From: Dictyostelium fasciculatum | Lineage: Eukaryota | DNA length: 64,000 nt | Direction: 5' to 3' | NCBI RefSeq assembly: GCF_000203815.1 | Contig: NW_004457713.1 | Location: 73,358-137,357 of the forward strand | Shown: positions 6,401 to 60,418 of the stretch, one piece after another | Numbering within the stretch: position 1 is the first letter of the stretch | How the letters are laid out: every line of letters starts with the position of its first letter | Made by a program: the position numbers and the translations under genes | The notes under the pieces: generated by a model | Databases searched by the model: none | Seen by the model: only the letters and a program-made list of their open reading frames with translations | What the model was told of the DNA's origin: nothing

Positions 6401-6566
6401 TTTACAAGGACTCTTCCATCCAGCTCGTCGTGTTCGTGACATTTATTGGAAGGTTTTCAACATGCTCTACGTTTCCTCTCAAGATTCAATGATTCCTGCC
6501 TATCCAAAAACAATAGACGATGGATTAAATACTTATCAACGTTATGAATTGGAATATATATTGTAA
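3480..6566 (+). CDS. sf3b1: Splicing factor 3B subunit 1 (SF3B1/SAP155), intronless, 1028 aa
   Basis: The N-terminus has repeated RWDETP / TP motifs (the U2AF/p14-binding TP-rich region). These are followed by about 20 HEAT repeats that are highly conserved (e.g. ...[31 protein letters not shown]...). Confidence 0.93.
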
Positions 6567-9481: not shown

Positions 9482-12400
9482 TTAGGTACCTATATAAAGA
9501 TTTAATAAATGTTGTGAAAGAGAAATTAAAGTTGATTGATCGGTGGTGGTAGCCATATCACTTGGAACTGATGAAACAATTGTAGATAGACCTGTTGTAG
9601 TGGTTGGAGCGGCTGTTGTAGTGGCAGTAGCTGTTGTAGTGTCTACTCCAGTTGTTGTATCAGTGGCGGTGGTTGTAGGGGTGGTTGTGGTTGCGCCATG
9701 AGTGGTCGCACTGGCTGTATTGGTGGTTGTTGAGTTGGTTGTGGCCGTAGTATTACAGAGAGCAGAGTCACAACTTGAATCGGTATTGAGGAAACCACCT
9801 GTCGATGGGATATTAACATCTCCAATGCCAGACTTGAGGGTACCCAATATAGCAGATAGGGCAACCAATGAAAGGATTAAAAAGACAGTGATAATACCGA
9901 CAGTGATAAAGATCTTTTTACGTTTTCGGTTCTTTTCAATCTCTCGTATTGTTTGTTGTTCCAACTCTCCTACCTTGTTTCCAAGTACCTCGATCTTTTT
10001 CTTGTCTAGAATATCGAGTTCAATACAAACATTGTCCACCTTTTTAGACAATTCCTGGGTGGCACCAACGTTTTCCATAAAGATGGCATCCTTGTTGACC
10101 ATTAAAAAGTCTTTGAGAACTGTTCCGTCTGAGAGTTCTCTGTCACCAGTTTCCTTGACTGCATTGGGTATAACCTCACGAAGTTCTTGGGCCAAAACAC
10201 CACGTTCCTTCTTTTCAGTGATACCAGTATCTTTGGCCCATTGGTCGGTGAGTTGGTAGTCATAGAGTTGAAGCTTCTTGATCTTTTCCAATTGCTCCTT
10301 GGTATTGACTGGCTTAATGTCTTTCTTTACTCTTCTATCTGATGGATTGTATGTGGTTCCAGTAACTGCAATGTTGCCATGAACCGATAGGGCTTCATTT
10401 GGCTCTGCATTGTTAATACCAACATTACCATATCGATAGATACCCCCTCTATGATTTTGATCCCATTGTCCGTTGACTTCAATATTATTATTATTATTTG
10501 TTGTTGTTGTTGAGGTTGTACCTATAGTAGGTGGTGAATCATTTTCTACATCTGTTGTTGAACTTGATGGTGTATTATTTTGTTGTTGAATGATTTGTTG
10601 TTGTAATGGGTGATAGTTTGTAGTATTAAATTGTTGTTGTTGTAAAATGATTTGTTGTTGTTGTTGTTGTTGTAATTGTTGGTTATATTGATCTTGATCA
10701 GGTGAGTTGTGTGATGATGATGGTGGAGAATGATAAATGTTTTGAATAATGGTTTGTTGTTGTTGAGCCGATGTTGCAGTTGAAGAGGTAGAAGATACAT
10801 TGGCAGTTGTCATTGATTCTTCTTGATGATTCTTTAACATTGTCAATGGAGATGATGGTGATGTCATTGTGGATGTGGTGACATTATTATGATTATTATT
10901 ATTATTATTTGTGCCAAGACTAAATAGTGGCAATTGTTGAGATGGTGGAGGAGGAATTTGGTTACTCGAAGCATTGAGTGGTGATCGTGTTACAATAAGT
11001 GGTGAATGATGATGTTGGGAATGAGTGAAAATGGGTGTGTTGTTTGTAGTAGTAGGTGTAAGTTGTAATGTTCTTGGTGACGAGTGTGTTGCAAGTGGCG
11101 AAAATTGTGGTTGTTGTTGCAACACAAGTGGCGACGACAGTCCTTCCTCTGGTGTTGGTATACCACTTGGTGTACCACTTGTTGAATTAGTATTATTATT
11201 AGTAGTAGAAGTAGTGTTATTATTAGAGTTACTATTATTATTATTGTTATCCTTTGAGCTAATTTTGGTTGTTGATGATAAAGAACCAAAAGTTAAAGTT
11301 GGATGACCGGTACGAACAATCAATGGATCGGAGATAAGAGACATGACGCAGTAATCTCTTTGATGATAACGAGCACTAACAGTGATAACCAATCTGAAAA
11401 ATTCTTGTTGTGGGTTTGGAAGCTTGTGTTTACGAGCATTGTTTGAAGTTGCCTTTCTGAAATGAAGACGAGGAATGGCTACTGTATTGCAGTTGGTGAT
11501 TGGCATAAGAGGTGGTTGTTTCTCTTCATTCTTTTCACGTTTTGAATTGGTTTGGTACAATTCAACCTCTACTTCCTCTGCAGGATTGCCAATATCGGTA
11601 CTTTTTACACCACGGATTCCAATATTCAATGATTCTATTGGATAAGTGACAGAATTGATTTCAACCAATGGCCGGCTATTGTCATCAATGGTAAAATGAT
11701 GTTGTATAGATACTCCGAGTTGGAAATGGTTTCTACGATAATAAACCCATGATGAATCAACCTCACTATATGAAAATCCTTTTTCTGCTAAAATAATCAA
11801 AGTTGGTGGGAGTCTTTGAGAAAGAGAGGGAAAAAGAAAAAGAATGAAATGTTGGTTATTAATGAGTCAAAAGGAGTACTTGTTCTTTTTGGATAATTAC
11901 AATTCAGTTCCAAAAGGTGATACTATTCTATGCCAATAGTTTGAGCAATAAGGAGTCCAATGAAAGATATGATTTTGGTCAATAATATATCTTCTCTTTT
12001 TAATATGAATTCCACCACCACCACCACCACCATTGGTAGAGATTGTTGAAGTTGCTTCACTTAATGATGATGTTGATGATGACAGGTCTATTCTTTTCAC
12101 TCCAACAAGTTTATCATTTGATGATGGTTGTTCAACATTCATTTCATTATCACTATCGTTATTATCATCATTATTATTATTGTTATTATTATTATTATTA
12201 TTTGTTAATGATACTTGTTGTTGTTGTTGTTGTTGTTGTTGTGGGGGTGGTGGTGGTATTGGAGTATTAATAGTTGGTATTATGATTGGTGTTGCTTTAA
12301 CCAATTGTTCAGACATATTTTCATTTATAGCCAATAGATTAGAATGATTGCTACCGCTGTTATTCATTATGATTGGTTGTGATGAGTTTAGATTGGAAAA

Positions 12401-15279: not shown

Positions 15280-18200
15280 TTATTCGGCATAATAAATAGT
15301 ATCTTTTTGAGAGGTATCAATTAAAATATGAGGATGTTTTTCTTGTAGTTGTACTGGGTTGATGTTGAGACATTGTCGTACATGGATCTTGACCAATTCA
15401 AAGGATTCCGATGCAATGAGATTGGCACCAGCAGTAGTCATCAGACAACCACCGATAGATATCTTGCGGAGGTTTTGGAAACGGAGAATGTGGTGAGCAG
15501 AGACATCGCTAATCTTTCTGCATCCAACCAAAGAGAGAACTTCCAAAGTCGAATAGATGGCACCTTCAGACAGTGCTTTGATACCTTCGTCAGTGATATT
15601 GACGACTGCATCAATCTTTAGTTTCTTGAGACTGGTGAGTGATGATGCAATACGTTCGATTGAAGTGTCGGTAAGGTTCTTGCAAAATGCAATGTTGAGA
15701 GAGGTAAGTTGTTTACAGGAATGTGTGATCGAGTGTATGGTTTGAAATTCAATGTTTCCATAACTCCAATCGAGTTGGGTGAGTTTGGGCATTGAATGAA
15801 TTTCACCATCCTCTGACAACATGGTAACGTCTTGGAGACCATAACAACGACGTAAACGGAAATTAGTAAGCTTGGTACATCCTTTGGTGATACATCCCAA
15901 GTCTGACGATATCTTGTGGCAGCCAGAGATATCGAGTTCGACCAACTCTTGACAACCGCGACCGATTGGCTTGAGCGAGGTGACGTTGTTGAGATTAGCC
16001 ATTCTAAAGATTCTCAATTTCGAGCAATGTTGTGCGATATAGGCAATACCAACATCGCTGATTGAACTACAGTAGGAAATGTCAAGTTCCAAGAGCGAGT
16101 TTGTAAACTTGGTCATTGCAGTGATACCTTGGTCCGATATGATTGGATTGTGTGTAAAGTTGGCGTACTGTAGGTCGGGACAATACTTGCCAATGAGACG
16201 GAGTGTATTGTCAGAGGCAGAGGCAATAGATTGTGCAAGACTGATGAGTCTAATGTCGTGGAGGTTTCTAAAGAGCTTGTCAATGGCCGACGATGTAACG
16301 TTGCGACATTTGTTCATTGACAACTCTTTGAGCAAGAGACAGTTGTTGGCGATGGCGTGGACAGTGGCATCACCGATTTGGTGACAGCCCGAAAAATCAA
16401 TGATAGCCAACTTGGGCGATTGTTGAATGAGTGCGACTGCTGAATGGTCGGATATATTACATTTCTTGAGATATACATTGACGAGTGGCAACTGCATGTT
16501 GGCAATGGCAATGATCTTGTCGTCGGTGATAGATTTACATTTTGTGAGGTTGAGTGTGTGCAAATGAGTGAGTGGTTTGTTTGTGGGTGGTGATTGTGGA
16601 GTGAGCGTAGTGGACAAGAGAAGAATGTTGTTGAGTGATGATACCAATGTGCCAGAGGCAACTACTGGATTGTTGACGTGGCTGTTGGCTCTTCCCAATG
16701 CCTTGTCAATAAAGCAATGCTTGATGGTGTGATGTGGAGAGATGGGACCACTGTCGCTGTTGGACAGTTGCTTCTCAATCGATCCAGGTGCAGACGAAGA
16801 ATGGAGTGGGTGGTGGTCTTTGGTGAGGAGATTGGTTGGAATGATGGTACTGACATTTGTACAAGAGACAAGACTGAGTGTCTCGAGATGTAGAAGCTTT
16901 CGGACGATCAGTTCGACAGTGCTGTCTGTGATTTGCTTGCATCCATCCAACACCAACATCTTTACACGTGGACTGTATTCAATGATACCTTCGATAAACT
17001 CGATTGGCAAATGACTGCAGTCCTTGAGTGACATGTGTGCAATTCTCAAGAGACGATCCTCGACAAAGTCCAAAATCGATGGACATCCAATAGCAGATTG
17101 GTAAAATTCGACAAACTGTGACGACGATGTAAACTTTTTAATGTGGTTGATAATAATGTCACGGTTGTATGGGTCGAGGTCGATACCCTTTTGAAAGAGA
17201 CTTCCAGCCTTTTTGAGTAATTTGATAGAGGCCATTTTGGTGTGTGGTCTCTTTGAACACATGATACCATAGACATGTGATAGATATCCATAACGAATAT
17301 AGGCACATCCCATTTCAATACGAATGATTGACATTGGATCAGAGTCTAGAAGCTTTTGTATTTCGTTTTCGTCTTTTTTCTTTGATACAAAGCTCTTGTG
17401 TGATACATTGTCATAGACTGAACGATGAATAAGATCTGGTGACTCTGATGCTTCCTTTTCTTGCATGAGCAACTCAAAGGGTGAGAGATTTTGAGTGATT
17501 GCTTCGGCAATTTCGCGGTGGTGTGATTCTGGTAACTTTTCAAACGACTGAATCAAACAGTTGAGTACTGTCGATGCACCGGCATAATAGGCAGCCGACT
17601 CTTTGAAACTTTGAGAAGTATGGAATCCCTTTTCAATAAATTGTGATTTTTGGAGTACAACTGGGAATTTGGAGGGATTAATCTTGATGGCTTCGATGAT
17701 CTTTTTACTTGCTCGAGAGAATACTTTGCTACGCAATCCATTTGCTTCGTTCATATCCAATTCAATATTGTTGTGTGTACCATTGATGCAAAGAAATTCG
17801 GCATACTCGAGTAAAACATTGTCGAGTGTAATCTTGGGACGTCCACCATCACAAACACTAGCACGTAACTTGTCTTCGGCAGCGTCATAATGAAGATCAG
17901 CCATATCCGGACTACATAGACGAGACATTCTTGCACGTTCGACCAACATGAGTGCCCAATTGGCAGATACCTCACCACTGTGAGGAGATACAGAGAGAGC
18001 ACTTCTAAAATGATCATCGGCCAAACTCATCAAACGTTCGGCGATTCTTGAAGTGTCAACATCGGTTGGACAATGACATTGTTGAGTGTCCTTTTCACGT
18101 GTTTGTTCTTGTTTGGCTTCATCCCACAGTACCATACCTTCGGCAAACTCGACAAGATGATGAGCCTTTACCTTGGCCTTCATACGTTTAACATCGGATT

Positions 18201-21200
18201 GTACCAAACGAATACCATCGTTTTTCATCAATTCCGAAGATGCTCTTTTAGTCAAAGCTACACCCGTAAGTTGACTAAATCTCTTCATTACCCATTGAAT
18301 ATCGACGAGGTCAACAAAAAATTCTTCTTCCTCTTTGATATCTACACCTCTAATGTACTTTTTCAACATATCTTCATCAAATTTCTTATTGTGAATTTGT
18401 TCAAATGTAATAATCTCTCTTGATTTTGGAATAATTTGAAAAGTTCCAACAAATTTCTTTCTAATCGATTCCCTAATGATATATATAAAATAAATGAAAA
18501 TAAATTGAAAAAAATAAAAAAGATTAATTAATAAATGGGTTCCATTTTTGTTTTGTTTCTACGACGTCTTTGACATACTTTATAGAATCAGGCCAGATTT
18601 TTCCTTTTGGAGTTTGTTCATATGTAAAAATAGTATTAAAGTAATGAACAACCACCTCTTTAAATGGTTCTTCAGAAGGAGTATCTGCTGTTTTCATTTT
18701 GCCTCTAAATAGTGACATGATTTCACTACGCATTGTTCTTGCTAAAATTTCACCCAAAATGATCTTTCGAAGTGAATTACATGTAAACAATCTTCTAGCA
18801 AGTCCCAAATATCTACAATTAATTCCCATTCTATGTAATTCTTGTGTAAGATGTAATTCTCTTTTTTCCATTGAATCCATGTGATCTAAATGATAAACAA
18901 ATTTTGGTATAACTTGTAAAAATAATCTATATGATGCTTCTTTTACTTCATCTAAAAAAATAAAAAGAATAAGAAAATAATTAAGGAGATTTTTTTTTTC
19001 TATAATTTTTTTTTTACTTACAATTATGTTCTGTAGAATTTGGATCAAATTTACCCCAACCGGTTAACGCATCTGATGATAATGGATTTTTATTTGATTT
19101 TACTAATTCAGGCTATAAAAGAAAAAGAAAAGTGTTTGGTTTAGTTTTGATTTTTTAGATTTTTTTTAGATTTTTGTTTCCATCCAACATACTCTAATTA
19201 ATTCATATAAATGAGAAGGAGGAGTATTATCATTAATTTTAACAATTGGAGGATAAACTCTTGCAAAATCTAAAAGATAATGTAAACCATCTGAACCAAT
19301 ATGACCTTCAATATCACCACAAGAATGTAATAATCTTGGAGAATCTTTTCCAACAAGATGACCTTTAAGATTGAGAGCTTGTGCTGATTGTTTCATTTTT
19401 TCGTTGAATCCAGGATCTTCGCTGTGAACTGTTATACCACCATCACTGCTACCATAGACAATAGTCTCTGAATTGATTGGTAACAATGACATGGCAACCA
19501 AACGATAACCTCTATAGTCGATCAATGCCATCAATGGATGATGTAAATCCTCTACTCTAGCATTGTAATAACTCATCAATCCCTTTAATTCATGACCTGC
19601 TGCTTTCATTGCATTCTTATCACCTGCATATAATCCTTGTGAATCTAATGCCAACTAAAATAGATAATAAAAAAAAAAAAAAAAAAAAGTTAATAAAGAG
19701 AAACATTTATATTATATTTTTTCTTCTTTTTTCTTTTTCTTTTTTCACTTACTTTAAATAAGATACCACAAGAAATATATTTATGACCACCGGCAACACC
19801 ACCAATATTGATTGGTTTAATAGTTTTGAGGTGAAGAGGTAGAGTAAGTTCAGAGATGATAACCTTTCCATAGATTTTGGCAGTGTATACAAAATCGTGT
19901 GCCAATTTACTAATCTCTCTGTATCCTTCCATTTTGTTGTTATTGACCAATGTTTGAAACTCTGCATTCCAATCTTTGGCGGTGGACAGTACCTTTTGTA
20001 CTGGTTTTAGGATGGCAGCCTTTTCATCGTATTCGTCTGCCATGTAGCCGGCACCTACTCTTGGGTAGGGTGGTGTTGTTGACGATGCTTGAGCATCGAC
20101 ATAGGATGATTTGACAGCCGACAAGTAGGACTGTGGTAGATGATTTCTATCGGGTGGTTCCAAAGCTCTTACTTTGTTCATTTCGCCAGTCTCTATCGAT
20201 GGCAGCGTATAAGGTGTAATGGTATGAGGAAATGCCAATACAGGTGTTTTATGTGGTGCTGGTTGTGGTGTAGATGGACCAACCACATCATCTATTGTTG
20301 AAGGTGCAGTCATTGATATAATTGGTTGTGATTGTGTTATAAATGGTGGTTTATGATTATTATTATTATTATTATTACTATCTTTATTTGTTGGTACTCC
20401 ATAGAAATAATTATTACTTGATGAAGTTGATGAATCGAGTTGAGGAGAATTGGTTGGTGATGATATATTTGCGGTTGGTATATGTTTGATGTTATCAAGT
20501 GATGATGCAGATGTTAACGATTCCATTGAAGGTGATTGTTGTTGTTCAAGTAATGATGGATAAGATGTTTGATGTTGTGCTGGAGGTACTTGTTGACTTT
20601 GTTGACTTTGTTGTTTCAAAGAAGAAGAAGAAGAAGAAGAAGTTCTTGGTCTTTGACGAGATTTATAAAAAGAAGCATCAGATGATGATGAAGTCTCGTC
20701 AAGAGACTCTACATTTGAATCGTGAGCATAGGAATAACCCATGTCATCGTGATCGTGATGTCCTTTGTAGCCATACAATTCAGAGATGTGTTGTTTCTGT
20801 TCGTCGGTTGGATGTTGATAGACATACAATGAAAATCTTCTTGCTTTTTTCTCTGTACTACTCATACTACCACCACTACTATTACTACCCATACTCTGAC
20901 TTAACATATTACCTGATTTACTTATAGTAGGACTACCATTACTATGTTGAATGGTATTGTTTCCATTACCGTTACTATTACTATTACTATTACTATTTTT
21001 TATATGATTATTATTATTATTACTATGATGAATATTGTCTGTTGTTATATTTGATACGTCATTACTACTTTGAATAGGTGATCCACCCATACCCATAAAA
21101 GGTATTTCATACTTTGGTGGATGATTGATATCAGTGTTCAAGTTTAGACTAGCTAACTTTTGTTTAATCAATCGTTCCTTTTCCTCTAGACTATCAATCT

Positions 21201-21321
21201 TTGATATCATATCTTCATCTTTTCGATTACCATTACTAGTACCGTTATTCTCTAAATAAACCTCTCCACCATAATGCATATTATTATCATTATTGTTATT
21301 ATTATTATTATTGTTACTCAT
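15280..21321 (-). CDS. Large CLU-domain protein fused to Cys-containing leucine-rich repeats (F-box/LRR-like). About 4+ exons: 19690-21321, 19166-19654, ~18524-19030, 15280-~18476.
   Basis: The N-terminal exon is poly-N/S-rich. The CLU central domain spans two exons (...LKGLMSYYNARVEDLHHPLMALIDYRGYRLVAMSLLPI...GLHYLLDFARVYPP). The C-terminal 1029-aa exon has many LRR_cc repeats (ISDVGIAYIAQHCSKLRIFRMANLNNVT...LDISGCHKISSD...). Its exon acceptor at ~18477 is verified (cattag|GGAATCG continues the ORF upstream of its first Met). The neighbouring donor was not resolved. Confidence 0.65.
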
Positions 21322-21942: not shown

Positions 21943-23481
21943 TTAAATACCTGGTAATGGGAATTGTTTAGAGAATGATTCAACTTGAGATTTAATTTCT
22001 TTGATTTCTTGGTTGCTTTCGAGGGCAGCAGTGAAATCGACCAACTTTGGACCAACCTTGGTTTGAATGTCAATGCAAATCTTGAGGATACGATCGAGGA
22101 ATTCGACGACCTTTACAAAATCTTGTTCCTTGAAACCACGAGAGGTGAGGGCTGGAGCACCGATACGGACACCACCTGGGGAGAGAGCACTGGCATCACC
22201 GTGGACAGCATTTTTGTTGACAGTGATGTTGGCAGCATCACAAGCCTTTTCAAACTTGTTGCCAGTGATTCCTTGTGGACGGAGATCCCACAAGACGAGA
22301 TGGTTGTCAGTGCCACCAGTCACCAACTTGTAACCCTTGGCAATGAGATTCTCGCCAATGGTACGAGCATTCTTTTGGACTTGAGCAGCGTATTCGTGGA
22401 AAGCAGGTTGAGAGGCTTCGAGGAGGGCAACGGCAACACCAGCAATGACATTTTCGTGTGGACCACCTTGGAGCATTGGAAAGACGGCAAAGTTGATCTT
22501 GTTTTCAATTTCGGGGATTGACTTTTTGAAAAAGATGATACCGGAACGTGGACCTCTGAGAGTCTTGTGAGTGGTGGTGGTAACGACATCACAGTACTTG
22601 AATGGCGAGTCGAGGAGGTTGGCAGCAACCAAACCAGAATAGTGAGCCATATCACACATCAAATAGGCACCGACACTATCAGCAATCTCACGGAACTTGG
22701 CATAGTTCCATTCACGTGGATATGCAGAGCCACCACAAATGATGAGCTTTGGCTTAAAGAGGTGTACATTCTCTTGGAGACGTTGGTGGTCGATCAAACC
22801 ATCGGCACCGATTTGGTATGGCATCGATTCAAAGTAGACAGAACTGGCTGAAATCTTCTTTTTAGCGGTTTGGTAACCGTGTGTCAAATGACCTCCAGAT
22901 GGGAGATCAAGTCCCATGATACGGTCGTGTGGTTGGAGAAGAGCAGTATATACTTCAAAGTTGGCTGGTGATCCACTGTATGGTTGAACGTTGGCTCCCC
23001 ATTCCTTTTCGTCGAGATGGAAACATTTCAAAGCTCTTGCGATACACAATCTTTCCAATTCATCGACAACTTCAGCACCACCATAATATCTAGCACCTGG
23101 ATATCCTTCAGCATATTTATTGGTAAAATGTGATCCAATAGCTTCCATAACTGCTTTTGATGTAAAGTTCTAGAAATAAATAAATAAATATATATATTAG
23201 TATATAGATCTATATTATATAAACAACAAAGAAAGAGTAAAACACAAAAACACTACATACTTCTGAAGCAATTAATTCCAAACCATCAGTTTGTCTTTTC
23301 TTTTCTCTACCAATCAAGTTGAATACATCTTTATCTACAGTCTCTAATGATCTGCATCCAATAAATTCTTCTGTTGACTAATAATAATAGTAATAGTAAT
23401 AATAGGTAGAATGAATGAAGAGTTAGTATTAAATACGTTGTATGTGAACTTCAGTTGCTACACTACACATCTCTCTTACCA
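21943..23481 (-). CDS. shmt: Serine hydroxymethyltransferase (SHMT), 3 exons: 23479-23481 (start codon only), 23261-23377, 21943-23169
   Basis: Exon 1 is ATG|GTAAGAG. Exon 2 is [39 protein letters not shown]. Exon 3 is [31 protein letters not shown]... with a PLP-binding region ([14 protein letters not shown]). All junctions are in phase. Confidence 0.9.
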
Positions 23482-24055: not shown

Positions 24056-26718
24056 TTACAAGATTTCATTTCTTTCTTTGTTTCTTGCTTCAAATTTAAG
24101 AGATCTACGATAGAGATCCTCTTCATCGAAACGAGGTTTAAGATTTTTCAAGAGTTTAGATATTTGGTATACTGGTTGAAGGTTGTAACGAGACAATTGA
24201 GATCCGAGTACAGTAGAGATTACATTATAGACCAATCTTCTCTTGCTAAAGTTAATCAAATTACCAATGAAATCGGGATTACCATCTTCGATAAAGGTGA
24301 GATCGGTAAGACAAACACCGAGATAGGGCAGGAGTGGTGGATTGGCTTTGGCCAAAAGTTCACGATATACTTTGTAGGAAAAGGCATTGGATAGTTGAGC
24401 TTGTAGATCGGTATATGATTGTTGAACGGCCTTTGGCATTTCTTCACGTGTAAACTTTAATCTATGAATAGCAGATTGATTTAATCCTGATAAAATTGCC
24501 ATTGCTGTATTATAATTATTTAATTGTTTTAATAAAAACTAAATGAAAAAAAGGATTAATTAGTATCTATTATCTAATCACGATATCTATTTATAATTTA
24601 ACATACTTCACCAATTTTAACAAATTTAGCCATAACTCTTGCTCTATCTTTAACCTTGTCATGATTCAAAATCATTGAAGCAGTCCAAGAAGAGATTTCA
24701 TTAAAACGAGAGATGAGAGCCAAAACATTGGGAGAACGGTGACGAAGTTTTGGTTTGTTCCACGATTGATTGAGAAGTTCACTTGGTTTGATGGCAGCAA
24801 ACATTTCAAAATCGATAAGTGTAAGTTGACGAGCAATTTCTTCATCATCAACGTCTAGAATATCGAGTGATTGAGACCAAATATTCTTTGGTACCTTTGG
24901 TTCTGGTGCCGGTGTAGTAAAGACGACCTTGTTCTTTTTGTCGTCTTCATCCTCTTCAGAACCACCCTTGATCTTGGAGTTTAGCGTTGTCATGATACGA
25001 ACAGAGTGTGAATGGTTACCTTCGTGACGGAGGTTTTCGCAAAATGCCTTGATGGTTTGAATCATCTTGTCGTTGAGGTCAGAGAAACTCTCCTTGACCC
25101 AGTTTTTGAGTACATTGACAACACGAAGTTGAATGTAGATGGCAATCTTTTTCCATTCTTCCTCTGTTTGTCCGGCTAGTTGTGGTACATTGTAACGTTG
25201 AATGAGCTTTTGTAAAAGCTTCTCGGGTGTGGTAAACGATTGATAGGTCAAGAGGAAGATCTTTGTATATTCGAGATCGTGGTTCTTTTCTGGTGCCAAA
25301 AGGATAACCAATTTGTTGAGTGAAGCTGCCTTGATTGCTTTGATATTGTTACTTGGATCGTTGTTGTTGTTGTTGTTGTTCATATTCATGTGGTTGATAC
25401 TACTGCTGCTTGATAAGAGACTGGCGCTACTAAGATTGTTTGGTAATGGAATACCTCCTGATTGTGTAAGAATTGATGGTGATGGATGGCTTGGTGGTGT
25501 GGTTGGATTGGATGGTGTACCAGTCATCGATGCTCCCAATCCTCCACTCAACGATGTCGATTGTGTAATACCTGCTGGTGGTGATGTACCATTTTGTGCA
25601 GCTGCCATTGCTTGTTGTTGTTCCTTTTCTTTATCCTTTTCTTCAACATACAAAATATTGGAATCTGGTTCATCATAAATATTTGCATCTTCCATTTCAA
25701 CAGGTTCTATAAAAAAGAGAGAAATAAAACAAAAATCAATAAATGATTCATAACATACAAATATATTTCCTTCTTTTCTCTCCCTCTCTTACCTTCATAT
25801 AATAAACCCAAAAAAGCAAGATGTTCTTCTAATGATTGTTGAGCATCCTTTTGTCTTTCATCCAAAGTTAGTCCAAAAATCTTTTCAGAATCTTTCAAAG
25901 CTGTTCTAATTAAAGTTACTAATCTACTTTCATTAAATGCATAGTCTGGATCTAAATAAAAATAAAACAAGGAGTTTAGAATGATTAGTTGGTGTTATTA
26001 TTATTATTATTATTTGTTTCTTTTTGTCTTTTCCTTTACATACATTTTACATTTGCTTCTTCTTCTAAAGACTTTCTAGAATTTAATAAACCTTCATATT
26101 GTAAATGTTGAAGAATCAATTGAATCATTGAATCACCACCGATAAGCGGATCATTTGCAAGTGTCTCTTCGTAGGCATAACACTGACCCAAAGCTATACA
26201 TCTATTGATTGGTTTGATTCTATCGTAGAGATCAGCAATCTCTGGGTGTTCTTTGAGTGCTCTAACAGTCCACAATGATTTATCAATCTTTTCACCATTG
26301 TCATTTGCAGCACCAGCCGATGAATGTGAAAGGGGTATATCTGGTGATTGTCCAGAGCCAACCTCATCGACACCAGTGGATTGATGCAGATTACTGCTGC
26401 TTTGTGGTGGAGTACTTGGATAGAAACTATTTGGTTTGGGCATGAATCCACTGCTACCAAAACTACCACTACTACTTGTACGATTCAAATTTTGTAAGAT
26501 ATTCTTTGCTGCTTTATGATGTGATTTTCTATTTGCTAAATCAATACCTAATAATTATAATATATACATATAATAATAAATATAATAGATTGAAATGTTA
26601 ACGAAATACAGATATATATATATATATATATATTATTTGCTATGAATACTATATGTCATACTTGATCTTGCAGGTGATGTTCCTGAACGAGGAGATGAAT
26701 ATAACATTGAATCTCCAT
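24056..26718 (-). CDS. Ras guanine-nucleotide exchange factor with an N-terminal LisH motif. About 5 exons: 26661-26718, ~26030-26546, ~25793-25975, 24609-25706, 24056-24538.
   Basis: LisH (IQLILQHLQYEGLLNSRKSLEE). RasGEF N-terminal domain (LVTLIRTALKDSEKIFGL). CDC25-homology catalytic domain (LTLIDFEMFAAIKPSELLNQSW...KFVKIGE|FLLKQLNNYNTAMAILSGLNQSAIHRLKFT...LPYLGVCLTDLTFIEDGNPD). The last intron was placed so that the conserved LNNYNTAMAIL segment is restored (phase 0 GAA|GTATGT...TTTAG|TTT). The junction around 25975-26030 is unresolved. Confidence 0.78.
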
Positions 26719-28137: not shown

Positions 28138-31100
28138 TTATATTTCCAATAAATGAACAAAAGTACTACGAGAAAGGCATTGATAGATTGGAGAATGAGA
28201 ATTGGTTGATGGGTAACTGTAGATTTGTGATAGTTGATGGAGTAGCTTTTCTGCTTGATTCGATTTGTCCTTTAGAAGAATCAAAAAGAGCATTACTAAT
28301 TGACCAAGTATTCTTTCTTCACCACCTTGTTTGACGATAAAACTATCAGATTCAGAGATACCAATCAATGGAAGTATAACATTCTTTTTCCATCTGATTC
28401 CATTAGACAATAGACTATCTACTACTTGGATGAGTGTCTCTACTGTACCACCACTAACTGTTTCTGAACCACAATGAGTGATGGTTGTGTCCTTACCACG
28501 AGATGATTTTCTCTTTGCTGACGCACTTGCAGAACCTCCTCTTCCACCTTTACTTGAGAATGAGTCCCTAAAGGCTGAAGTACCAGTACTTAAAAGTTCG
28601 GATTTGGGTGGGGCCATATCTTGTGCTTTCTTTTCTCTAGAGTCAAACATTGAAAGGAACGATGGTAGAGTTCTAGACATCTCAATATTATTGTTCACGT
28701 TTGTGTTCTTGTACATGTTGTTATTGTTATTGTTGCCATTGATTTGTTCTAGTAGTTCAAGTTGTGAATGTTGTTGTAGTTGTTGTTGATAATGTTGTAC
28801 TTGTTGTTGTTGTAGAGCTGATAGTTGTTGTGGTTGTGGAGATGGTGCCTGTTGTGGTTGTGCTTGTTGATAATAAAATTGCTTTTGTAGTTTTTGTGGT
28901 TGTTGTTGTTGTCCTTGTAGTTGTTGTTGTAGTACTAGTTGTTGTCCTTGTAGTTGTTGTTGTTGTGGAATCATTCTCATCATTCCACTTGGTTTGGGAG
29001 CTGGCATTGATTTGTCAGCAGCAGCAGCAGATGATCCAAAAGTACTCGAGAGAAGCGAACTAATAGATGAAGCACCTGAAGGAATATCAAAAGATCGGTT
29101 AGAGATAGGAGCCAAAGTAACTGAATTAGGACGAGAGGTAGGAGCAGGAGGGGCTCTACTAACAGGTGGGGCAGGGGCAGGAGAAGGAGCAGGAGCAGGA
29201 GCAGGAGTTGGAGCTTCATAATCGAATAGACCGAATCCCATTGCTCCATCGTCTTCTTCTTCTTCTTCTTCATATCTCACCACAGATTTCTTAGCATATG
29301 ATGATGATGATGATGAGGAGCTAGCAATGGCAGCAGCAGCACTGGCAACTGGAGTTGATGAGAAAAAGTCAAACATGTCACCATCTGCGAAACCCATGTC
29401 TTGTTCCTCTTCTTCTTGCACTACTTGTTTGGCCAACATCTTTTTTCCAGCCATTGGTAAAGTAGAGGTGGTTGCAAAAGAAGAAGAGGTAGTAGTAGCT
29501 GCTGGTTTGTTGACAACAATAGGTTCAGCTGGATAATCGCCAAATAGATCGAATCCCATGTCGCCCTCTGAAGAATCATCATCATCAGCAGCATAAGGTG
29601 TTGATATGATGGTCTTTCGGTCGTATGATCTTTCTTTTTCTTCGGCTACAGGTTCAGGGTAATCTGTCATATATGCCAAACCAGAATCATCATCCCATTC
29701 TTCATCGTCGTCTTGATCTGCATTATTTTCCTCTTCAATGAGTGCCGACGAAAGTCTTCTTCTCGATAGAGCACTTGCAAGAGTATACATCATATCAGAC
29801 TTTGCTTCCTCTTTCATTATCTCCTTTTTGACTTGTTCAGATGTCTTTTTCAATGCGAATCCACTTTTAATAGCACCAAGTAGAGACGATTGCTTTTCTG
29901 ATTCATTAACAGCAGCAACAGAGAGAGAAGAAGCAGCACGTGGTGCATTGCCTGGTACTGGTGGAGGTGGAGCAGCTAGAGGGGCACTTGGTGGTCTAGG
30001 AGCACTTGGTAGTGGTGGAGGTGGTGGTGCACCAAAAGCAGAAGCACCACGTGGTGCATTGCCTGGTGGTGGTGGTGGAGGTGGAGCAGACTTGGTGATG
30101 GGGGCTAGAGTTGGTCTTGGAGGGGCACTTGTTGTTGGTGGTGGTGGTGGTGGTCCTCCAACCAAAGCTTTACCACGTGGTAGGTGTATCATACCGTTGC
30201 CACCAAATGATCTGGCAGCTGGTTGGACAAACATTCCTCCCAATGGTACTGATGTAGCTCCAAACAATGTTGTAGGTACACCTGCTGACATTGAACTTGA
30301 AAATGATGAACTACTTGCAGAGTATGATAGATTACCTGCAGCTGAGTAACTTGGAGAAGTTGGTGAATAACTTGGTGAAGTTGGGGAGTAACTTGGAGAA
30401 GTTGGGGAGTAACTTGGTGAAGTTGGTTCATAACTTGGAGAACTTGGTTCATAACTTGGTTCATAACTTGAATAAGTTGGTAAATAAGTTGGGGCATCAT
30501 CACGTGGAGCATATGAACCGAAACTTTGAGCATAGTCATGTGAAACAATACGAGATTCTCTTGATCTGACTGCCCCACCTCTATCTTCTTTCAAAGATGG
30601 CTTCGACTCCTTTTTACACTTTTTCTTTTCGAGTACTTCTTTGAATTTTGCTTTAGGAGCTAATAATTCACCACCACCACCCCAAGAATTATCATATGGA
30701 GCAGCTTCACCGCCTTCGCCATATCTCATGTCATGTTCATCTTCTTCATCCATAATGTCAGACCAACTTTGTTTTGGTTTCTCTGGTGTAACAAGATAAC
30801 TGTCCAATGTAGCACCACCAACAATTGACCATTGATTGATTTTAGATGGTGTTGGTTGATCGAGATCAATCTCTGTTGAAGACTGTTGTGGTTTCTTTTT
30901 AGATGGTGTTAGATTGATCAATGTTGTTGGTCCATTTTCCTCTTGTGTCCAATCTGTTAGATCATCACGAATAGTTTGCAAGATGAGTGTCGATTCTGAA
31001 TAACTATCCTCTGAAAGTGTATCCAATTCACTGATTGCATCGTCAAATGACTTTTTAGCCAATTGAATGGCTGTTTCCGGTTTTCCAATCTTTTTATAAA

Positions 31101-34100
31101 AGGTGGCTACCTTTTTAACAAGACGTAGATGGACTGTGGAATTGGGAGGTAGACATTGTTGAGACTTGCCAAGGGCACGATCGAAAATCTCTTTTGTCTT
31201 TTCAATGACCGACTTTCTGGAAATGTCATTACTCTCGACATTGGACAATGCATCCATGATTTCAGCATTCTTTTCCAACAAAACAATTGCATGTTCTTGA
31301 ATGGTACACTTGGTCAATGATGAATCAATCAATCTTAGAATAGATTGAGATTGATAGTTTAACTCGTCGATTGCCTTTTGCTTTTCTCTCTTTAACTTGT
31401 TGAGAGCCAATGGGGTGGCTGGTTTGGATGACGGGGTGGTGGGTTGTGGCACTTGTTTGTTAATCTTTGATTGAGTCACGGTGAGGAATGAATCAATTGA
31501 TTCGGCCAATAGATTGATTTCTCTATTATTGAAATCACCAAAAGTATCTGCTATTTGATGGAAAATACGGAGTGTTTGGTTATTGTCTTTACTCTCCTCG
31601 ATGAGATTCTCAAGTTGTTGACGTTTGGTGAGCATGGTTGGATCGGATTCATTGTCGACACCATTGCCGGCATCATGCTCATCTTGGAAGGGGATGTATG
31701 GTAGTGCGTCAACCTTGTATTGATCGACAATCTCTTTGAGTGGTGGTGCATTCTTGAGTGGTTGTTCATTCTTTTCACGTTTCTCTACGGCTACAAACGA
31801 AGTGAATTGAGTGACGATCGAGTAACGAATCGATAGATCAATGACATCACTCTTTTTGGCAAGTTTAATCTTTTCGTGTTGTATTTTGTTTTCACTGTAC
31901 GATCCGTCATTGTACTCTCTGATCATGGATCGAGCTGCCAACTTGTGAATCAAACTGCCACGAATAAATCCAATCTCTGGTGTGTGGACAGTGTTGGTGA
32001 GCAGACCACCGCCAGGTGCTTGACAGGTGAGTGTGGCACGTGTACAAATACCCGAGAATGCATAGATCACTTGACGTTGTTGACGGAAAATGGATGTGAT
32101 CACTGATGGCGACTGTTCAATCTTGTCGGTAGAGTCAAACTTGACGCAGACATTGCTCATTGCCGGTTGGACACAACGTTGCAGTTGGTCGATAATCTTT
32201 TTGGCCGATGGACGTTTGTTTGGTGTGATAAACTCTGATTGACCTGCACCCAAACGAGCAATCGATTTGATAAAGTGACGAGATACATTCTCACCAATAC
32301 CAAAACAAAAGATACGACAAAATGATGATGCACGCTTGACCAATTGTTGGATTGTCGATTCGTTAGAGACATTACCGTCGGACAAGAGTATAATATTGTT
32401 TGGACGAGTGGGTGTGGCATTGGAAGAGAGAAGGATGAGTGACTCTAGTGGCAGTAAAAGTTGTGTACCACCATAGCTTGGTTGCAACTTGGTGTTGATA
32501 TGGTTCCATGCAATCTGGAGATTGGCATCGGTCGGTGCAACATTTTCAGCAAAGAGCCAATCGTAAATATCACCAAACTGAACGATATTGAAACGTACAT
32601 TCATACCACGGAGGTTTTGTACTGCCATACGAAGTGTTCTCAACATGTCTTGGAATGGGTCACCACGCATCGAAGCACTCAAATCGACGAGGAAGGTGAT
32701 GTCGGTTGGTGGAGTTGAATCTGCATCAGCAATACCAGTATCCAAATCCAACTTTGGATAGAAAGCCAACATGGAAGCATGATGTCCTTTACTGTCAACC
32801 TCTACCCACATACGTGGAGAATATACATCCTCCAGACCAATCAACAATTGGAAGTTTTTACCAAGTGATAGAGTGTCGGTTGCCTTACTGTCTCTTGTTA
32901 GTTCTACCGTTGCTTTGGTATGTGTCTTTTTGAATCGAATGGGATGTGATGGTGACACAATCTTTACAATGTTGTATGGCATTTCAAGACCTACTTGAAC
33001 CGATAGATTGGCTTGTGAATCATCGGATACTTGGACGGTAGAAGTGGTGGCTTGGGTGAATTGAGCACCCGATAGTTGTCTCTGAGCAGGTGCAATACTG
33101 GCAGGTAGAACAAATGAAATGTCGAGACCGTCGACACTCAGCTCAGTGACATAGGTTATCTTGATGAGTACCTCTGCATTGGCTGGCAAGTTACCAACGC
33201 TGACTGTAAACACATCTGGTTTCTCTTCGTCCATTAGATAAGCTCCATGACCTTCGGCAATAGCTTGGCGATATTCCTTGTGAGCCTTTTCCTTTTCCTT
33301 TACCTCTCCAATAATATGTTTACCATTGATGTATGCTTCAAAACCACATACAGCTCCCATTTCATCCAATGGGAATACATACTTGGCTTCTATTGGTTTG
33401 GATGAGGTATTCTTGTAGTGTTGGTAGATGGTAACCTCTCCAATGAGATCCAATAACTTGGCTCTTACATGAACAGCCTTTAGTGGAATCTGAACACCTC
33501 CACCAATCAAACCAGACTCTTTTGCCTCTTCTTGTTCCTCTTCTTGTTTTGATTTTGGTGGAACAGTAGATGAAACAACATCACTATCAATAACAGATGG
33601 GATGACAGGCTTTTCTTCAATCTTTAGAGTTGATTGAGGTATTGGCTTTAAAGATTTGTCTTGTGGTTCAAATTCGATTAGATATTGCAATGTTTGTTGC
33701 TTTGGATCGAAAATGACCATTTCATCGTCTGAAAATTGAGAGTTGTTATTGTCATTCTTGGCGACACCTTGGACACTGTTGAAACCACGTGGTGGTTCGA
33801 CAAGCTGTGTTTGATGACTTGTATATTTCTTTGTGCTTCCCAATGCGACACGACACATCAACATGAATCTATTTGGTGATGCAATGACAGGAGTATCACA
33901 ATATTGATAACTAGTATTTGCATTGGTTCCAAAATAAATACCAGCACCCAAATAACCTGCATCACGTCTCTTTGCACCTGCTACCGATCCCGACAACTTT
34001 GGTGTCAACAAACCACGAGACAAAATACCTAAAATATTACTTGTTCTACTACCATGATACAATGTCTTTACATTTTGAACTTTAAATGTTAAATTCTCTT

Positions 34101-35865
34101 CATCTCTTCTTTCAATTTTAAATATATTTTTAATATTCATTTTCTAAAAAAGAAATAATAAAATAAAAGATAGAATTAATATTAAAAGGAAAATAAATAT
34201 TATTATTATTATACTTGTTAATTATTATTTTTTTACATACATGATTTGGATTTAAATTAACTTGGGATGATAACTTTTTAAAATCTTTTGAAGTAGAGTC
34301 AATACGAGAGATATTACATCTCATGGCACGGTATCTAGTATCGATTGGATTTGAGGTGGCATTAGAGACACCTAGTGATTCACCAACATTTAAAAGATCT
34401 TTCATCAATTGTACCATATCTTGAATGTCACCAAGAGATGATTCAGGTGATGATCGAGCTTGTGGAATATGACCATACAACTCTTGATAGAGTTTGGTTA
34501 CAACTGGGTCAGAGGTAGGTGTTCCTGATTCAAGTGCAGTGGCAATTTGGGTGAGTACCAACTCTGCCTTTTCAACTTGTGGCAATGACACTGTTCCCAG
34601 TGGCGTTTGAAGTGAACCCTCTGGAGTGAGTGATAGTTTACCCTTTGATTTGGCATCCATCTTGTCTTCCAAACTTGCAATAGCTTCATTATACAATGTA
34701 CCAACCAATTGTTGTATCTCTGGTTGAAGTAGTGATGTCGACGATTGTTGCAATGGATTCTGTGCAGTTAGTTTATCAGAACCTACAGACAATGTCATCA
34801 TTGTTTGTTTTTGGTATCCTGGTTTAGTGACCGAATATTGAACGACTAAATAGTTGTAGATAGAGAGTGCGTCGGCAATCGAACTGGCACTGATCCACTC
34901 CTTTTTAGAAGTACCAACAATATCAGTAGTACGACCTTGGTGGAGGAATACACGGTAATACGACTGATCATTCGTATCTCTTTCATTAGATACGACAGTA
35001 TTGACATCACCAATTTGTATGAGTGACAATGTTCCACCGGCAGCATGCACTTCAATGCAAGCAAATTCCTTTGTACCTCCATTGGTCAACAAACTGTATT
35101 TAACAACATGATACTTGTCTTCTGGAAAGGTTGGTGTATCTCCAGCAATTGACTTGTATACATGTCTCTTTAATTGTGAGAATTTATCTCCAGCCGTAGC
35201 ACCACCAGCAGCAGTTGCACCATTGCCGTCGTCCAAAAGATTTCCAAAATCCAATGATTGAAAGTGATGTTCATTAATGTTGTACAGTGATGCCAATGCA
35301 TATTCATCAGGTGATAGTAAAGATCCAAATTGAGCAGAATCCTCTACATATTGTTTAGTGACCACTGGTATATTAAACTTTAATGCCTTTCTAATATTGA
35401 ATGATAAATCATCCAAAAACATATTCTTTTTCTTTCTTGGTGTCTTTTCCAATTGATTACCATCTTCATCTACATCTAATAATTCATTACCATCATCATT
35501 CTCTTCTTCTCCTTCTTGTTGGTTATCATTATTATTATTATTATCTTTTGATAATCTATTTAAATCATTGATACAACAAATATAGTAATTTACCTAGATA
35601 GATAGATGGAGAGTAATAGTTTAGTTAATATCTATTTCAAACACTTATACTTTCTCTCTCTTTATAAATACAATACTTTTTGATTTAATAAAGTAGTGAT
35701 GGAACCACCATATTTAATGATTAACTCTTGAACTACTTTTTTATCTTTTAATGTTACACCTCCACCATCTACATAACATAACTTTGATTCTAAAATCTTG
35801 TTTACAACACCACCGGTAGAGTTGATGTTATTGCTGCTGTTACCACCACTAGTTCTAATTGTCAT
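28138..35865 (-). CDS. Vault-type poly(ADP-ribose) polymerase (PARP4/vPARP-like), about 2.5k aa. Domain order is BRCT, WGR-like, PARP regulatory and catalytic, VIT, vWA, then a very long disordered tail with Pol-II-CTD-like heptads, P-stalk-like acidic motifs and poly-Pro. Exons: ~35668-35865, 34236-35590, 28138-34150.
   Basis: BRCT-like start ([29 protein letters not shown]). PARP catalytic H-G-S/Y/E signature ([20 protein letters not shown]...GAGIYFG...LMCRVALG). VIT ([26 protein letters not shown]...) and vWA MIDAS motif (FLVDLSASM). The tail has [55 protein letters not shown], and PPPPPP tracts. Two introns verified in phase (AAA|GTATTG...TCTAG|GTA and CAT|GTATGT...TTTTAG|AAA). Confidence 0.8.
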
Positions 35866-39291: not shown

Positions 39292-41083
39292 TTATTCATC
39301 TTCTTGAAGAATGAATGAAGAACCCTTAAGAGCAATGATGACTGAAGGTATGTTGGTATTGGATGAAGGAGTCACTGGAATTACAGATGCATCGATTACA
39401 TTAATATTCTTTGATCCTTTTAATTTTAATCTTGGTGAAAGTGGTGATGTAACATCTGATCCCATTCTAACACTAAATAAAAAAATAAAATAAATAAATA
39501 AATTAGTTTGTATGTATATATTTGTTATTTTTCTTTTCTTTTTTGTTTTGTTACCTTCCATGTGGATGATAATCAGTTAGAGAAGTAGCACGAATATGTT
39601 TTTCAAGATCTTCCAAAGATTGAACAGCAAAACCAGGTAAGAATTCATCACCTTGAAGATACCCTCTTTCTAAAAGTTTAGATTCAATCATTCTACAAGC
39701 TTTTAGACCATCTTGAATGACATTGATATCTTGTTGTGATGAAAGATAGTTTTTGTCGACCAATGGAACTGTGAAACTGGTGGTTGTTGCATTTTCAATT
39801 TGAATGGAACCAGAAGATTGTGGATAAACCAATTCAACAAAACAAATGAATCTATTACCACCCATGAAAGGTCTAATATCTGGATTAAGAATCCATTTAA
39901 TCTTTTGACTACCATTATTGTCTTCTGGTTTTGGACCATAGATAACGTAGCCGTCGGCAGCTACATCATGTAGAAAGGCTGATGGAGGTATATGACTATA
40001 TTGGTCGCTAACAGATGCTCCTAGAATATAGGAGAACATATGGTCATACAGATTCTTACCAACATATGGTGAATGGAGTACTGGTTTGATGCCAGCTCTA
40101 CGGAGTGATTCCCAATCACCGATACCAGAGAATTGAAGGAACAGTGGAGAATCGTATGCACCCATACTAATTACGATTTGTTTTCTAACTTTGGCATAAA
40201 TGATACGATGTGTTGTTTTGTCCAAGAGATAGACACCTTTGGCTTCAACCATTGCCTTTTTCTTGTCAACTTCTACGTCCAACTTTAGTGCCTTTGTACC
40301 TTCATAGACATCAAGATTGGAACGATCGGCAATGATATTATCTACAAACTGACCATACGATGTTTGTCTCTTCCAATGACCGGTTCGATTGTCAAAAGAT
40401 TGTGCAAACCTTCTATCCAAGAATAAACCAATTCTGGTGTCAATCTCTTCACCATAGGTATATCCAACGTCTTGGAGTACTTGTTTCATCTCTGGTAGGA
40501 ATACACGGTCCTTGTCATTAACACGTACATTGAATGCCTTGTTGAACAATTCACTATCGACCAATGGTTTAATGGATGTGTCAAAGTCCCATTCCATGTC
40601 ACCACCACAATGTTCTACCCAAAGGTCATAGTCTTCCTTTACACCAACTTGAAAGATCATAGCATTGATCATACCACAACCACCCAAACCAACACCTCTT
40701 CTCAACTCTATCGATCTATTATGAGTATTTGATCGAGGAGTTGAGAAGAAAGACTTTGCATAGTCTGGCTGATAATTAAAGATCCAGTTGTCAGACCATC
40801 CATTTGGTTCCCAGATGAGTGGATGTTGAGGATATTTACCTTCCTCTACCAATAAAACACGGTTAAGTTTGTTTGCCGATAGCTTATTGGCAACTACAGA
40901 TCCCGATGTTCCTGCTCCTAATATAATATAATCATATTCTACTGTTTTACTAATCTTTCCAAATATTGATTCATCCTTTTTTGATTGTTGTTGATCTGAT
41001 GCTGCAGATGATGATGATGATGGTATACTATCAGATTGAATATATCCAAAATATAAAAATATAAATAATAATAATAATTTCAT
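39292..41083 (-). CDS. Secreted GMC (glucose-methanol-choline) family FAD oxidoreductase, 2 exons (39574-41083, 39292-39487)
   Basis: Signal peptide MKLLLLFIFLYFGYIQS. FAD-binding YDYIILGAGTSGSVVANKLS. C-terminal active-site region HPHG|S VRMG...VIDASVIP, restored by a GTAACA...TTTAG intron in phase 2. Confidence 0.85.
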
Positions 41084-60227: not shown

Positions 60228-60418
60228 ACATATTAAATAAACACACACATTTTGTTGTTTGTCTTCCCCGTTTTGGGTGGGTAAAAAATTACTCGTTCGG
60301 CTTTTTTCTCTTTTTTTCTCAAACGAACGACAATTTGATTTGTATGAGCCAAGGTTCCTTTCTCTTATTGTATTCACATTTAAATTATATCTTTATTAGA
60401 GAGAGAGAAGAGAGAGAT

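Follow-up and report, generated by a model that had tools for sequence, protein, structure and literature searches.

We describe here a vault PARP gene (PARP4, or vPARP) of the dictyostelid amoeba Cavenderia fasciculata (Dictyostelium fasciculatum) and the motif-rich tail of the protein that it encodes. The DNA analyzed, referred to as the window, is a stretch of 64,000 nucleotides (contig NW_004457713.1, positions 73,358 to 137,357 of the forward strand), and all coordinates are counted from its first letter. The gene occupies positions 28138–35865 on the minus strand, on which all of its features given below also lie. Its 2,515 codons specify an enzyme half composed of BRCT, PARP, VIT and von Willebrand A (vWA) domains, followed by a tail in which we found a 14-3-3-like domain, heptads of the kind that form the C-terminal domain (CTD) of RNA polymerase II (Pol II), proline runs leading into a WASP/WAVE-type WH2–central–acidic (VCA) module, motifs resembling the C-terminal peptide of the ribosomal P-stalk proteins, and a helical C-terminal domain.

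Gene model and enzyme half

The model joins three exons in frame: exon 1 at 35865–35677, beginning with the ATG at 35865, exon 2 at 35593–34241, and exon 3 at 34143–28138 including the stop codon. Both introns are of the GT..AG type and measure 83 and 97 nt, as given by the listing of open reading frames (ORFs) and the splice join. Exon 3 is an unbroken ORF of 6,003 nt that runs from the ADP-ribosyltransferase (ART) domain through the whole tail to the stop, and enzyme and tail are therefore not separable by any splicing model. An earlier, sequence-only reading of this locus had proposed one giant gene, which this ORF and the occurrence of the same architecture in five species bear out. The opposite view, that the PARP4 part and the motif-rich tail belong to separate genes or transcripts and were joined by an error of the gene model, is scarcely credible. 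Our single-gene model is a prediction from the sequence. A single ORF covers everything from the ART domain onwards, in a genome rich in AT (G+C of 30–43% across the window), five species share the architecture, and the PARP4 proteins of Mastigella and Euglena that carry stalk-like motifs are each one polypeptide from a single assembled transcript. The two-gene model was rejected on the continuity of the ORF.

The gene is an already-annotated member of a known family. Its product is 100% identical, across the aligned part, to the annotated Cavenderia fasciculata protein P0001 (2,504 aa), the sole difference being that P0001 lacks 11 residues at the exon 1/2 junction, within the BRCT domain. 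The orthologue alignment at this junction (intron 1/exon 2 start, 35593–35677) shows that the orthologues keep VNYY(V/I), which favors the acceptor that places the exon 2 start at 35593; the deposited P0001 model probably used a wrong splice site.

The ordered half of the protein had been assigned to the PARP4/vault-PARP architecture in the sequence-only reading, and Pfam recovered the BRCT, PARP, VIT and VWA domains, with PARP_reg falling below its cut-off. The BRCT domain (aa 23–149; 35336–35799) extends across intron 1 and an acidic insert and scored 31.2 bits with BRCT_2 and 26.3 bits with BRCT, both above the respective cut-offs. It is followed by the PARP helical, or regulatory, domain (HD; aa 342–474; 34361–34759), which scored 22.8 bits against a PARP_reg cut-off of 26.8 bits and aligns to the HD of human PARP4 (8sx1). 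The ART domain lies in exon 3 (33700–34140; PF00644, 81 bits), where a residue-level alignment with human PARP4 superimposes the catalytic His, Tyr and Glu, contained in LYHGS, GAGIYF and DDEMVIF, on the human H-Y-E triad. The VIT domain (aa 735–845; 33151–33483) scored 125.7 bits with PF08487, and the vWA domain (aa 995–1152; 32230–32703) scored 70.9 bits with VWA_3 and 56.5 bits with VWA.

The comparison with human PARP4 proposed in the earlier reading gave a clear result: for HD and ART together, the best match among solved structures was human PARP4 (8sx1; E = 1.5e-43, versus E = 8.8e-23 for PARP1). With residues 500–1583 as the query, animal PARP4 proteins were matched at E-values of 1e-160 to 1e-195 and ~40% identity. 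These alignments identify the gene as a genuine PARP4/vPARP orthologue and, the H-Y-E triad being intact, as a catalytically plausible one.

Modules of the tail

Orthologues were collected by running HMMER exhaustively against 1.84 billion representatives, which yielded five dictyostelid-type proteins that align right through the 14-3-3-like domain: those of C. fasciculata, Heterostelium album, Synstelium polycarpum, Dictyostelium purpureum and one EukProt species. In a word-indexed search with the full-length protein, low-complexity words dominated and only four proteins were recovered. The 14-3-3-like domain, the proline runs, the C helix, the acidic motif with its tryptophan and the C-terminal domain are present in all five orthologues, and WH2 in four. 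At least one acidic-MGF(G/D)LF motif was likewise found in each of the five, with four copies in D. purpureum. The two features on which the sequence-only reading turned, the heptads and the stalk-like motifs, are thus both present in close orthologues (four of five and five of five, respectively).

The tail that follows the ITIH-like block comprises ~1,220 residues, in agreement with the length of more than 1,200 proposed previously. The accompanying description of this whole region as disordered did not hold, since disorder is not uniform: a 14-3-3 fold takes up ~220 aa, and the last ~110 aa are helical. The first of these ordered parts, a pseudo-14-3-3 domain (aa 1361–1580; 30946–31605), matched PF00244 over profile positions 4–223 (E = 9e-27) and 14-3-3 zeta with E = 2.9e-24. 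An AlphaFold2 model computed with four orthologues as input has nine helices and a predicted local distance difference test score (pLDDT) of 88.6, and the top Foldseek matches of this model were all 14-3-3 proteins, with template-modelling (TM) scores of 0.75–0.82. All of the phosphate-binding residues are replaced (K49D, R56Q, R127D and Y128A), and none is restored in the dictyostelid orthologues. The fold is complete although degenerate, and would be a structural or non-canonical binding module. Further along the tail, at 30736–30765 (aa 1641–1650), we observed a Trp-x-x-Ile core followed by an acidic run, as in Atg8/LC3-interacting motifs; the same pattern also occurs in Synstelium (WSEITEEDE) and Heterostelium (WAMITEEDE), and not in D. 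purpureum or in orthologue P0003.

The second ordered part, the C-terminal helical domain (aa 2404–2515; 28141–28476), is a candidate counterpart to the PARP4 domain that interacts with the major vault protein (MVP). These last 112 residues are conserved among the orthologues and are predicted to adopt a seven-helix fold (pLDDT 81). No significant match to nine animal PARP4 C-termini was obtained with hhalign, a profile search of the PDB returned chance matches only, and a Foldseek search of the PDB with the model gave nothing below E = 1.8. Between the stalk-like motifs and this domain lies a Gln-rich low-complexity stretch (28726–28974), which is absent at that position in orthologues P0002–P0004 and species-specific.

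The CTD-type heptads, read from the sequence, form an array at 30349–30465 in which variant units precede three tandem YSPTSPS. The sequence-only reading was right about the array and its YEPS units and wrong about the number of perfect heptads, which it gave as four: we count three perfect and three degenerate heptads, with YEPS among the variants upstream, and four perfect copies are obtained only in the PTSPSYS register. The perfect copies differ from one another at synonymous sites only. The Pfam profile RNA_pol_Rpb1_R scored 19.4 bits on the array, just below its cut-off of 20.3 bits, and no RNA polymerase domain was detected in the protein with Pfam. In composition-preserving shuffles of the tail, at least one YSPTSPS arose in 5 of 20,000. 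The array occurs in four of the five dictyostelids, with 2 to 7 units, and its location varies: in two species it lies upstream of the proline runs, and in two others it has WH2 before it and the C helix after it; its presence is kept among dictyostelids and its position is not. CTD-type repeats were also seen in a second lineage, in a PARP4-like protein of the sponge Sycon ciliatum (P0146/P0260), where ~12 tandem YSPT(S/A)PS units fill aa ~1585–1665.

The proline-rich region (29959–30153), conserved in all orthologues, consists of the runs PPPPPP, PPPPPPP, PPPPP and PPPP with G/A-P starts and FG flanks. The putative WH2 motif (aa 1935–1947; 29845–29883) scored 15.6 bits with Pfam WH2, below the cut-off of 23.1 bits, and a profile built from the orthologues matched the WH2 motifs of N-WASP (E = 4.5e-5) and WAVE2 (E = 7e-3). 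The central (C) helix (aa 1965–1980; 29746–29793) was aligned with the C regions of WAVE1 and N-WASP (VATILSRRIAV; IVGALMEVMQKRSKAI), and the acidic (A) motif with its tryptophan (aa 1990–2000; 29686–29718), read from the sequence, with the A region of N-WASP. A VCA profile made from three orthologues had N-WASP, WAVE1 or WAVE2 V or VCA segments as all of its top seven PDB matches (best E = 4.5e-5), with alignments across V, C and A at E = 0.003–0.01; as a single sequence against the PDB, the VCA gave weak E-values only.

The sequence-only reading had noted the PPPPPP/APPPPP runs correctly and likened them to the FH1 regions of formins, having missed the WH2, C and A motifs downstream. Runs of five to seven prolines preceded by Gly or Ala, as present here, are the kind of sequence that profilin binds, and under the FH1 view they would feed profilin-actin to a processive elongation machine. 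We consider this exceedingly unlikely: no FH2 domain was detected in the whole protein (Pfam, E <= 0.1), and WH2-C-A begins within ~30 residues after the runs, which is the layout of WASP/WAVE proteins, whose proline runs bind profilin too. Because WH2-C-A follows and FH2 is absent, the order of motifs assigns the proline runs to a WASP/WAVE-type output module rather than to a formin FH1, and the formin reading was rejected on the same two grounds. The protein may work like a nucleation-promoting factor (NPF). It does not belong to the WASP, SCAR or WASH families; a WH1, SCAR-homology (SHD) or WASH (WAHD) N-terminal domain had no Pfam match in the whole protein. To our knowledge, it is the first PARP known to carry a WASP-type VCA module.

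Related sequences were observed in other PARP4 tails. The PARP4 of Pelomyxa schiedti (P0195) has an acidic-Trp motif and a WH2-like motif (LLQQIQNGKQLKK) in the order A then WH2 (aa ~1278–1372 and ~1440–1600); this protein model ends in a Rab-like GTPase domain and is possibly a fused gene model. A TF(A/G/T)GMFGA(A/T)PPPPP repeat unit occurs in the dictyostelid tails of P0002 (aa ~2010–2050) and P0003 (aa ~1860–1960), and the PARP4 linker of a teleost (P0121, aa ~1340–1375) has FGAxPPPP units that resemble it. The combination of FG and polyproline may be an old feature of the PARP4 linker.

Three stalk-like motifs follow the VCA: motif 1 (29533–29586) and the degenerate motif 2 (29362–29415), both read from the sequence, and motif 3 (29218–29271), whose hexapeptide MGFGLF is the P1/P2 core and which covers positions 48–88 of the 88 in the Pfam profile Ribosomal_60s. 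The three acidic tracts with DMGF(G)LFD that had been proposed from the sequence were thereby recovered at or near their proposed sites. Scanned alone, this piece of the tail scored 30.7 bits with Ribosomal_60s, above the cut-off of 28.1 bits, with three stretches matched, and the observed counts of stalk-like motifs were reached in none of the 20,000 composition-preserving shuffles. The motifs lie 360–480 residues from the C-terminus. A CK2-type serine (SD/E) stands upstream of the motif in most species, and the acidic run with an MGFGLF-type ending is exemplified by EESDGDMGFGLFGD from D. purpureum and ESSDDDMGFGLFT from a teleost. The conserved C-terminal peptide of the P-stalk is itself a GTPase-docking element and a CK2 target. 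Two reports (PMC11624264, PMC6421407) describe the P-stalk as activating translational GTPases and as interacting with or activating GCN2, and its proteins as phosphorylated.

Recurrence, proposed function and alternatives

Beyond the dictyostelids, we found the stalk-like motif in the PARP4 proteins of Euglena gracilis (five copies), the archamoeba Mastigella, several molluscs, a millipede and several teleosts, for example as EDESSDDDMGFGLFT and SDDESVDDMGFGLFDDD. Across 172 PARP4-type tails there are 20 stalk-like motifs in 12 proteins, versus 0.015 expected from shuffling; this family-wide recurrence was not part of the sequence-only reading. Pieces of other proteins recur as well. 14-3-3-like pieces are present in the PARP4 tails of a euglenid, amphioxus, a hemichordate (Ptychodera) and a starfish, as halves in amphioxus and Ptychodera, and a near-copy of the N-terminal ~55 residues of actin, matching Pfam Actin at positions 5–65 only, is found in those of cnidarians, molluscs, a flatworm and a hemichordate. 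Individual actin near-copies were noted in Ptychodera P0006 (aa ~1401–1452), Nematostella P0015 (aa 1490–1555), Hydra P0137, Mytilus P0138 (GFAGDDHP) and Macrostomum P0209. A ubiquitin-like domain ending in LRLRGG precedes the five acidic-(M/I)G(F/M)GLF-type motifs of Euglena gracilis (P0187, aa ~1270–1345), another lies in the PARP4 tail of Aplysia (P0018, aa 1364–1435), and several mollusc PARP4 proteins have ubiquitin Pfam matches.

Judged by their conservation, the modules of the tail are under selection, because they are kept in the orthologues and recur in distant PARP4 proteins. The alternative of neutral drift holds that heptads, proline runs and acidic-Phe motifs arose by chance in a biased, fast-evolving disordered tail. 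Parts of the tail are indeed species-specific low complexity (the Gln-rich stretch, PAPAPA, Ser runs), and the copy number and position of the heptads differ between species. Even so, drift is very unlikely: the modules are kept in five dictyostelids spanning the group, the shuffles never reproduced the counts of stalk-like motifs, the family-wide number exceeds the expectation as given above, and the DNA copies of the heptad differ only synonymously. Drift was rejected on orthologue conservation together with the shuffle tests.

On this basis, we think it rather probable that the dictyostelid PARP4 linker, from the VIT–vWA block to the putative C-terminal anchor, acts as a conserved multivalent docking scaffold, the partners of which we infer from its motifs. 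The C-terminus of human PARP4 anchors inside the vault, and the remainder forms a flexible tether (PMC12280208; PMC10450202); by analogy, the C-terminal helical domain of the amoeba protein would anchor it to MVP. The proline runs, WH2 and the CA segment would recruit profilin-actin, G-actin and the Arp2/3 complex, and the heptads would offer phospho-regulated docking sites for CTD kinases and readers. The stalk-like motifs could occupy the P-stalk-tail pockets of translational GTPases (eEF2, eEF1A, eRF3 and eIF5B), with the P-stalk-dependent kinase GCN2 as a further candidate partner. Such factors, or ribosome complexes carrying them, would thereby be brought to the ADP-ribosyltransferase or into vaults.

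Recent work on D. discoideum provides a setting for this proposal. By cryo-tomography, 80S ribosomes were reported within ~8% of vaults, always in fixed orientations, and among the proteins enriched by proximity labelling with MVP were several PARPs and, of 79 ribosomal proteins, 69 (PMC13100048). In the same MVP-TurboID data, Q54HY5 (DDB_G0289141) was the most enriched PARP, with a log2 fold change of 3.5 and 40 peptides, and Q54LJ4, Q55GU8 (adprt4) and Q8I7C6 (adprt2) were also enriched, all of them being candidate PARPs only (PMC13100048). A stalk-like motif in a vault PARP is a natural candidate for the link to vault-enclosed ribosomes.

Instead of mimicking the P-stalk in function, the stalk-like motifs might work for other machinery, as short linear motifs of a generic acidic-aromatic kind. 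Additional contacts to Arp2/3 or actin regulators, ligands of the AP-1/GGA gamma-ear and acidic peptides resembling activation domains are candidates under this alternative. The dictyostelid copies are internal rather than C-terminal, follow the VCA directly and in many cases have LFGDY as their ending. The gamma-ear consensus is aromatic-G-[PDE]-aromatic, to which the dictyostelid FGDY ending conforms. The match to P1/P2, however, goes beyond an acidic stretch with aromatic residues, as it comprises MGFGLF, a D/E run before it and often the SD/E serine; Ribosomal_60s scored above its Pfam cut-off; and the copies of Euglena, molluscs and fish have neither a VCA nor FGDY. We regard the generic-motif explanation as unlikely.

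Several other observations weigh against the docking scaffold as we propose it. P1/P2 carry their peptide at the extreme C-terminus, whereas the stalk-like motifs lie within the chain; the second copy is degenerate in C. fasciculata; and mammals and many other PARP4 proteins have no stalk-like motif. On the actin side, Pfam WH2 is below its cut-off in this protein, WH2 is missing in orthologue P0003, there is no N-terminal regulatory domain of the WASP type, and an actin nucleator would be topologically odd if the tail lies in the vault lumen. A word-indexed search with a composite of the D. purpureum tail gave no matches, and a D. discoideum orthologue was not found. Finally, two PARPs of D. 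discoideum were assigned to the vPARP clade (clade 5) in an early survey, which reported VIT and vWA as absent from them (PMC2964712), unlike the dictyostelid orthologues found here, which have both.

The near-copies of hub proteins in PARP4 tails bear on two wider proposals. According to the first, the tails are bait: they copy strongly conserved host proteins that are targets of pathogen effectors (the P-stalk tail, the actin N-terminus, ubiquitin, 14-3-3 and the CTD), and the vault PARP senses or traps the effectors. The spread of the copies is consistent with this, as ubiquitin-like domains occur in Euglena and molluscs, actin N-termini in cnidarians, molluscs, a flatworm and a hemichordate, and 14-3-3 halves in amphioxus and Ptychodera. 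The human PARP4 linker has, in addition, been reported as positively selected, with contact to viral factors proposed (PMC10450202), and a further report describes ribosome-inactivating toxins that dock on the P-stalk (PMC9823235). We nonetheless find the bait proposal highly doubtful, as its inference is purely pattern-based, the modules do not evolve fast in dictyostelids but show good conservation, and a working VCA is not obviously bait. We also know of no such effector for amoebae.

The second proposal extends the docking scaffold to the whole family: PARP4 linkers across eukaryotes would be modular copies of hub surfaces (the P-stalk tail, the Pol II CTD, the actin N-terminus, ubiquitin, 14-3-3 and the WASP VCA) by which vaults capture the partners of those hubs, and the P-stalk-like motifs would tether translational GTPases, and hence 80S ribosomes, inside vaults, facing the ADP-ribosyltransferase. 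In this general form we rate it as rather unlikely. If true, it would explain the oriented ribosomes in Dictyostelium vaults and offer a candidate for the long-sought cellular ADP-ribosyltransferase of eEF2.

Vaults are among the largest and most abundant particles of eukaryotic cells and have no agreed function. PARP4 is their sole enzymatic component, with a long linker that has so far been regarded as featureless. A linker with recognizable, conserved modules supplies mutable handles on the partners of PARP4 and the vault, for which translation factors or ribosomes, Arp2/3 and actin, and CTD readers are candidates. The recurrence of the stalk-like peptide in the PARP4 proteins of euglenids, amoebae, molluscs, an arthropod and fish adds to this significance, and the organism group concerned has good genetics and is the one in which vault-enclosed ribosomes were newly reported. 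A literature search that combined PARP4 with the P-stalk, GFGLFD, WH2/VCA or the theme of short linear motifs turned up no account of the tail features. The sequence-only reading had called the arrangement undescribed, and we likewise found no paper on these tail motifs; the tail architecture is an undescribed variant within a known family.

The rest of the window holds ordinary housekeeping or eukaryotic genes that are irrelevant to the tail: SF3b1 at 3480–6566 (+), a MYRF-like NDT80/Peptidase_S74 protein at 9482–11800 (−), an LRR protein at 15280–18369 (−), CLU at 19690–21321 (−), serine hydroxymethyltransferase at 21943–23148 (−), a RasGEF at 24598–25695 (−), a GMC oxidoreductase at 39551–41083 (−) and a PIN-domain protein at 60335–62050 (+). 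No tRNA genes were found in the window. Opposite the Pro-, Gln- and Ser-rich parts of the tail, Gly-rich or Val-rich ORFs of 203, 103 and 99 aa lie at 29738–30349 (+) and 28478–29063 (+); they are mirror-image artefacts of low-complexity codons and not genes.

Comparison with known systems

Each module of the tail can be set beside the system that it resembles. The amoeba 14-3-3-like domain has the full nine-helix fold of the 14-3-3 proteins, with the last two helices nearly identical. It differs in that N173 and N224 are also replaced in the Cavenderia protein, in an insert of ~20 residues between helices 3 and 4, and in being part of a 2,515-aa protein, whereas 14-3-3 proteins are free dimers. 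With the CTD of Rpb1 the protein shares tandem YSPTSPS units, three perfect ones here, up to seven in other dictyostelids and ~12 in the sponge PARP4. Compared with that CTD, the repeats are very few, they are flanked by YEPS variants, and no polymerase is attached.

The stalk-like motifs agree with P1/P2, and with the tail of uL10/P0, in having an acidic run, often an SD/E serine, and then (D)MGFGLF(D). Unlike P1/P2, the amoeba copies consist of the tail only, without the N-terminal dimerization domain, and the motif is internal, repeated two to four times and, in dictyostelids, usually extended to LFGDY. The actin-related part follows the class I NPFs of the WASP, WAVE (SCAR) and N-WASP type in its sequence of a proline-rich region, a putative WH2, an amphipathic C helix with an SRR(R) signature and an acidic stretch with a single Trp. 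In contrast to these NPFs, the amoeba module sits in the middle of a PARP without a WH1, SCAR-homology or WASH regulatory domain, its WH2 is below the Pfam cut-off, and its NPF activity is putative.

At the level of the whole protein, the VWA5A-type intracellular VIT–vWA proteins share the VIT–vWA block followed by a helical C-terminal domain, and, apart from PARP4 itself, no human protein but VWA5A is reported to have a domain like the MVP-interacting domain of PARP4 (PMC10450202); these proteins lack both the PARP module and the motif-rich linker. The closest counterpart is human PARP4, which has BRCT, HD, ART with H-Y-E, VIT and vWA in identical order, followed, as in the amoeba protein, by a long flexible linker and then a C-terminal helical domain (PMC10450202, PMC12280208). 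Both proteins have a proline-rich linker. That of the amoeba is about twice as long and carries the 14-3-3 fold, CTD heptads, WH2-C-A and P-stalk-like motifs, none of which is present in the mammalian sequences examined.

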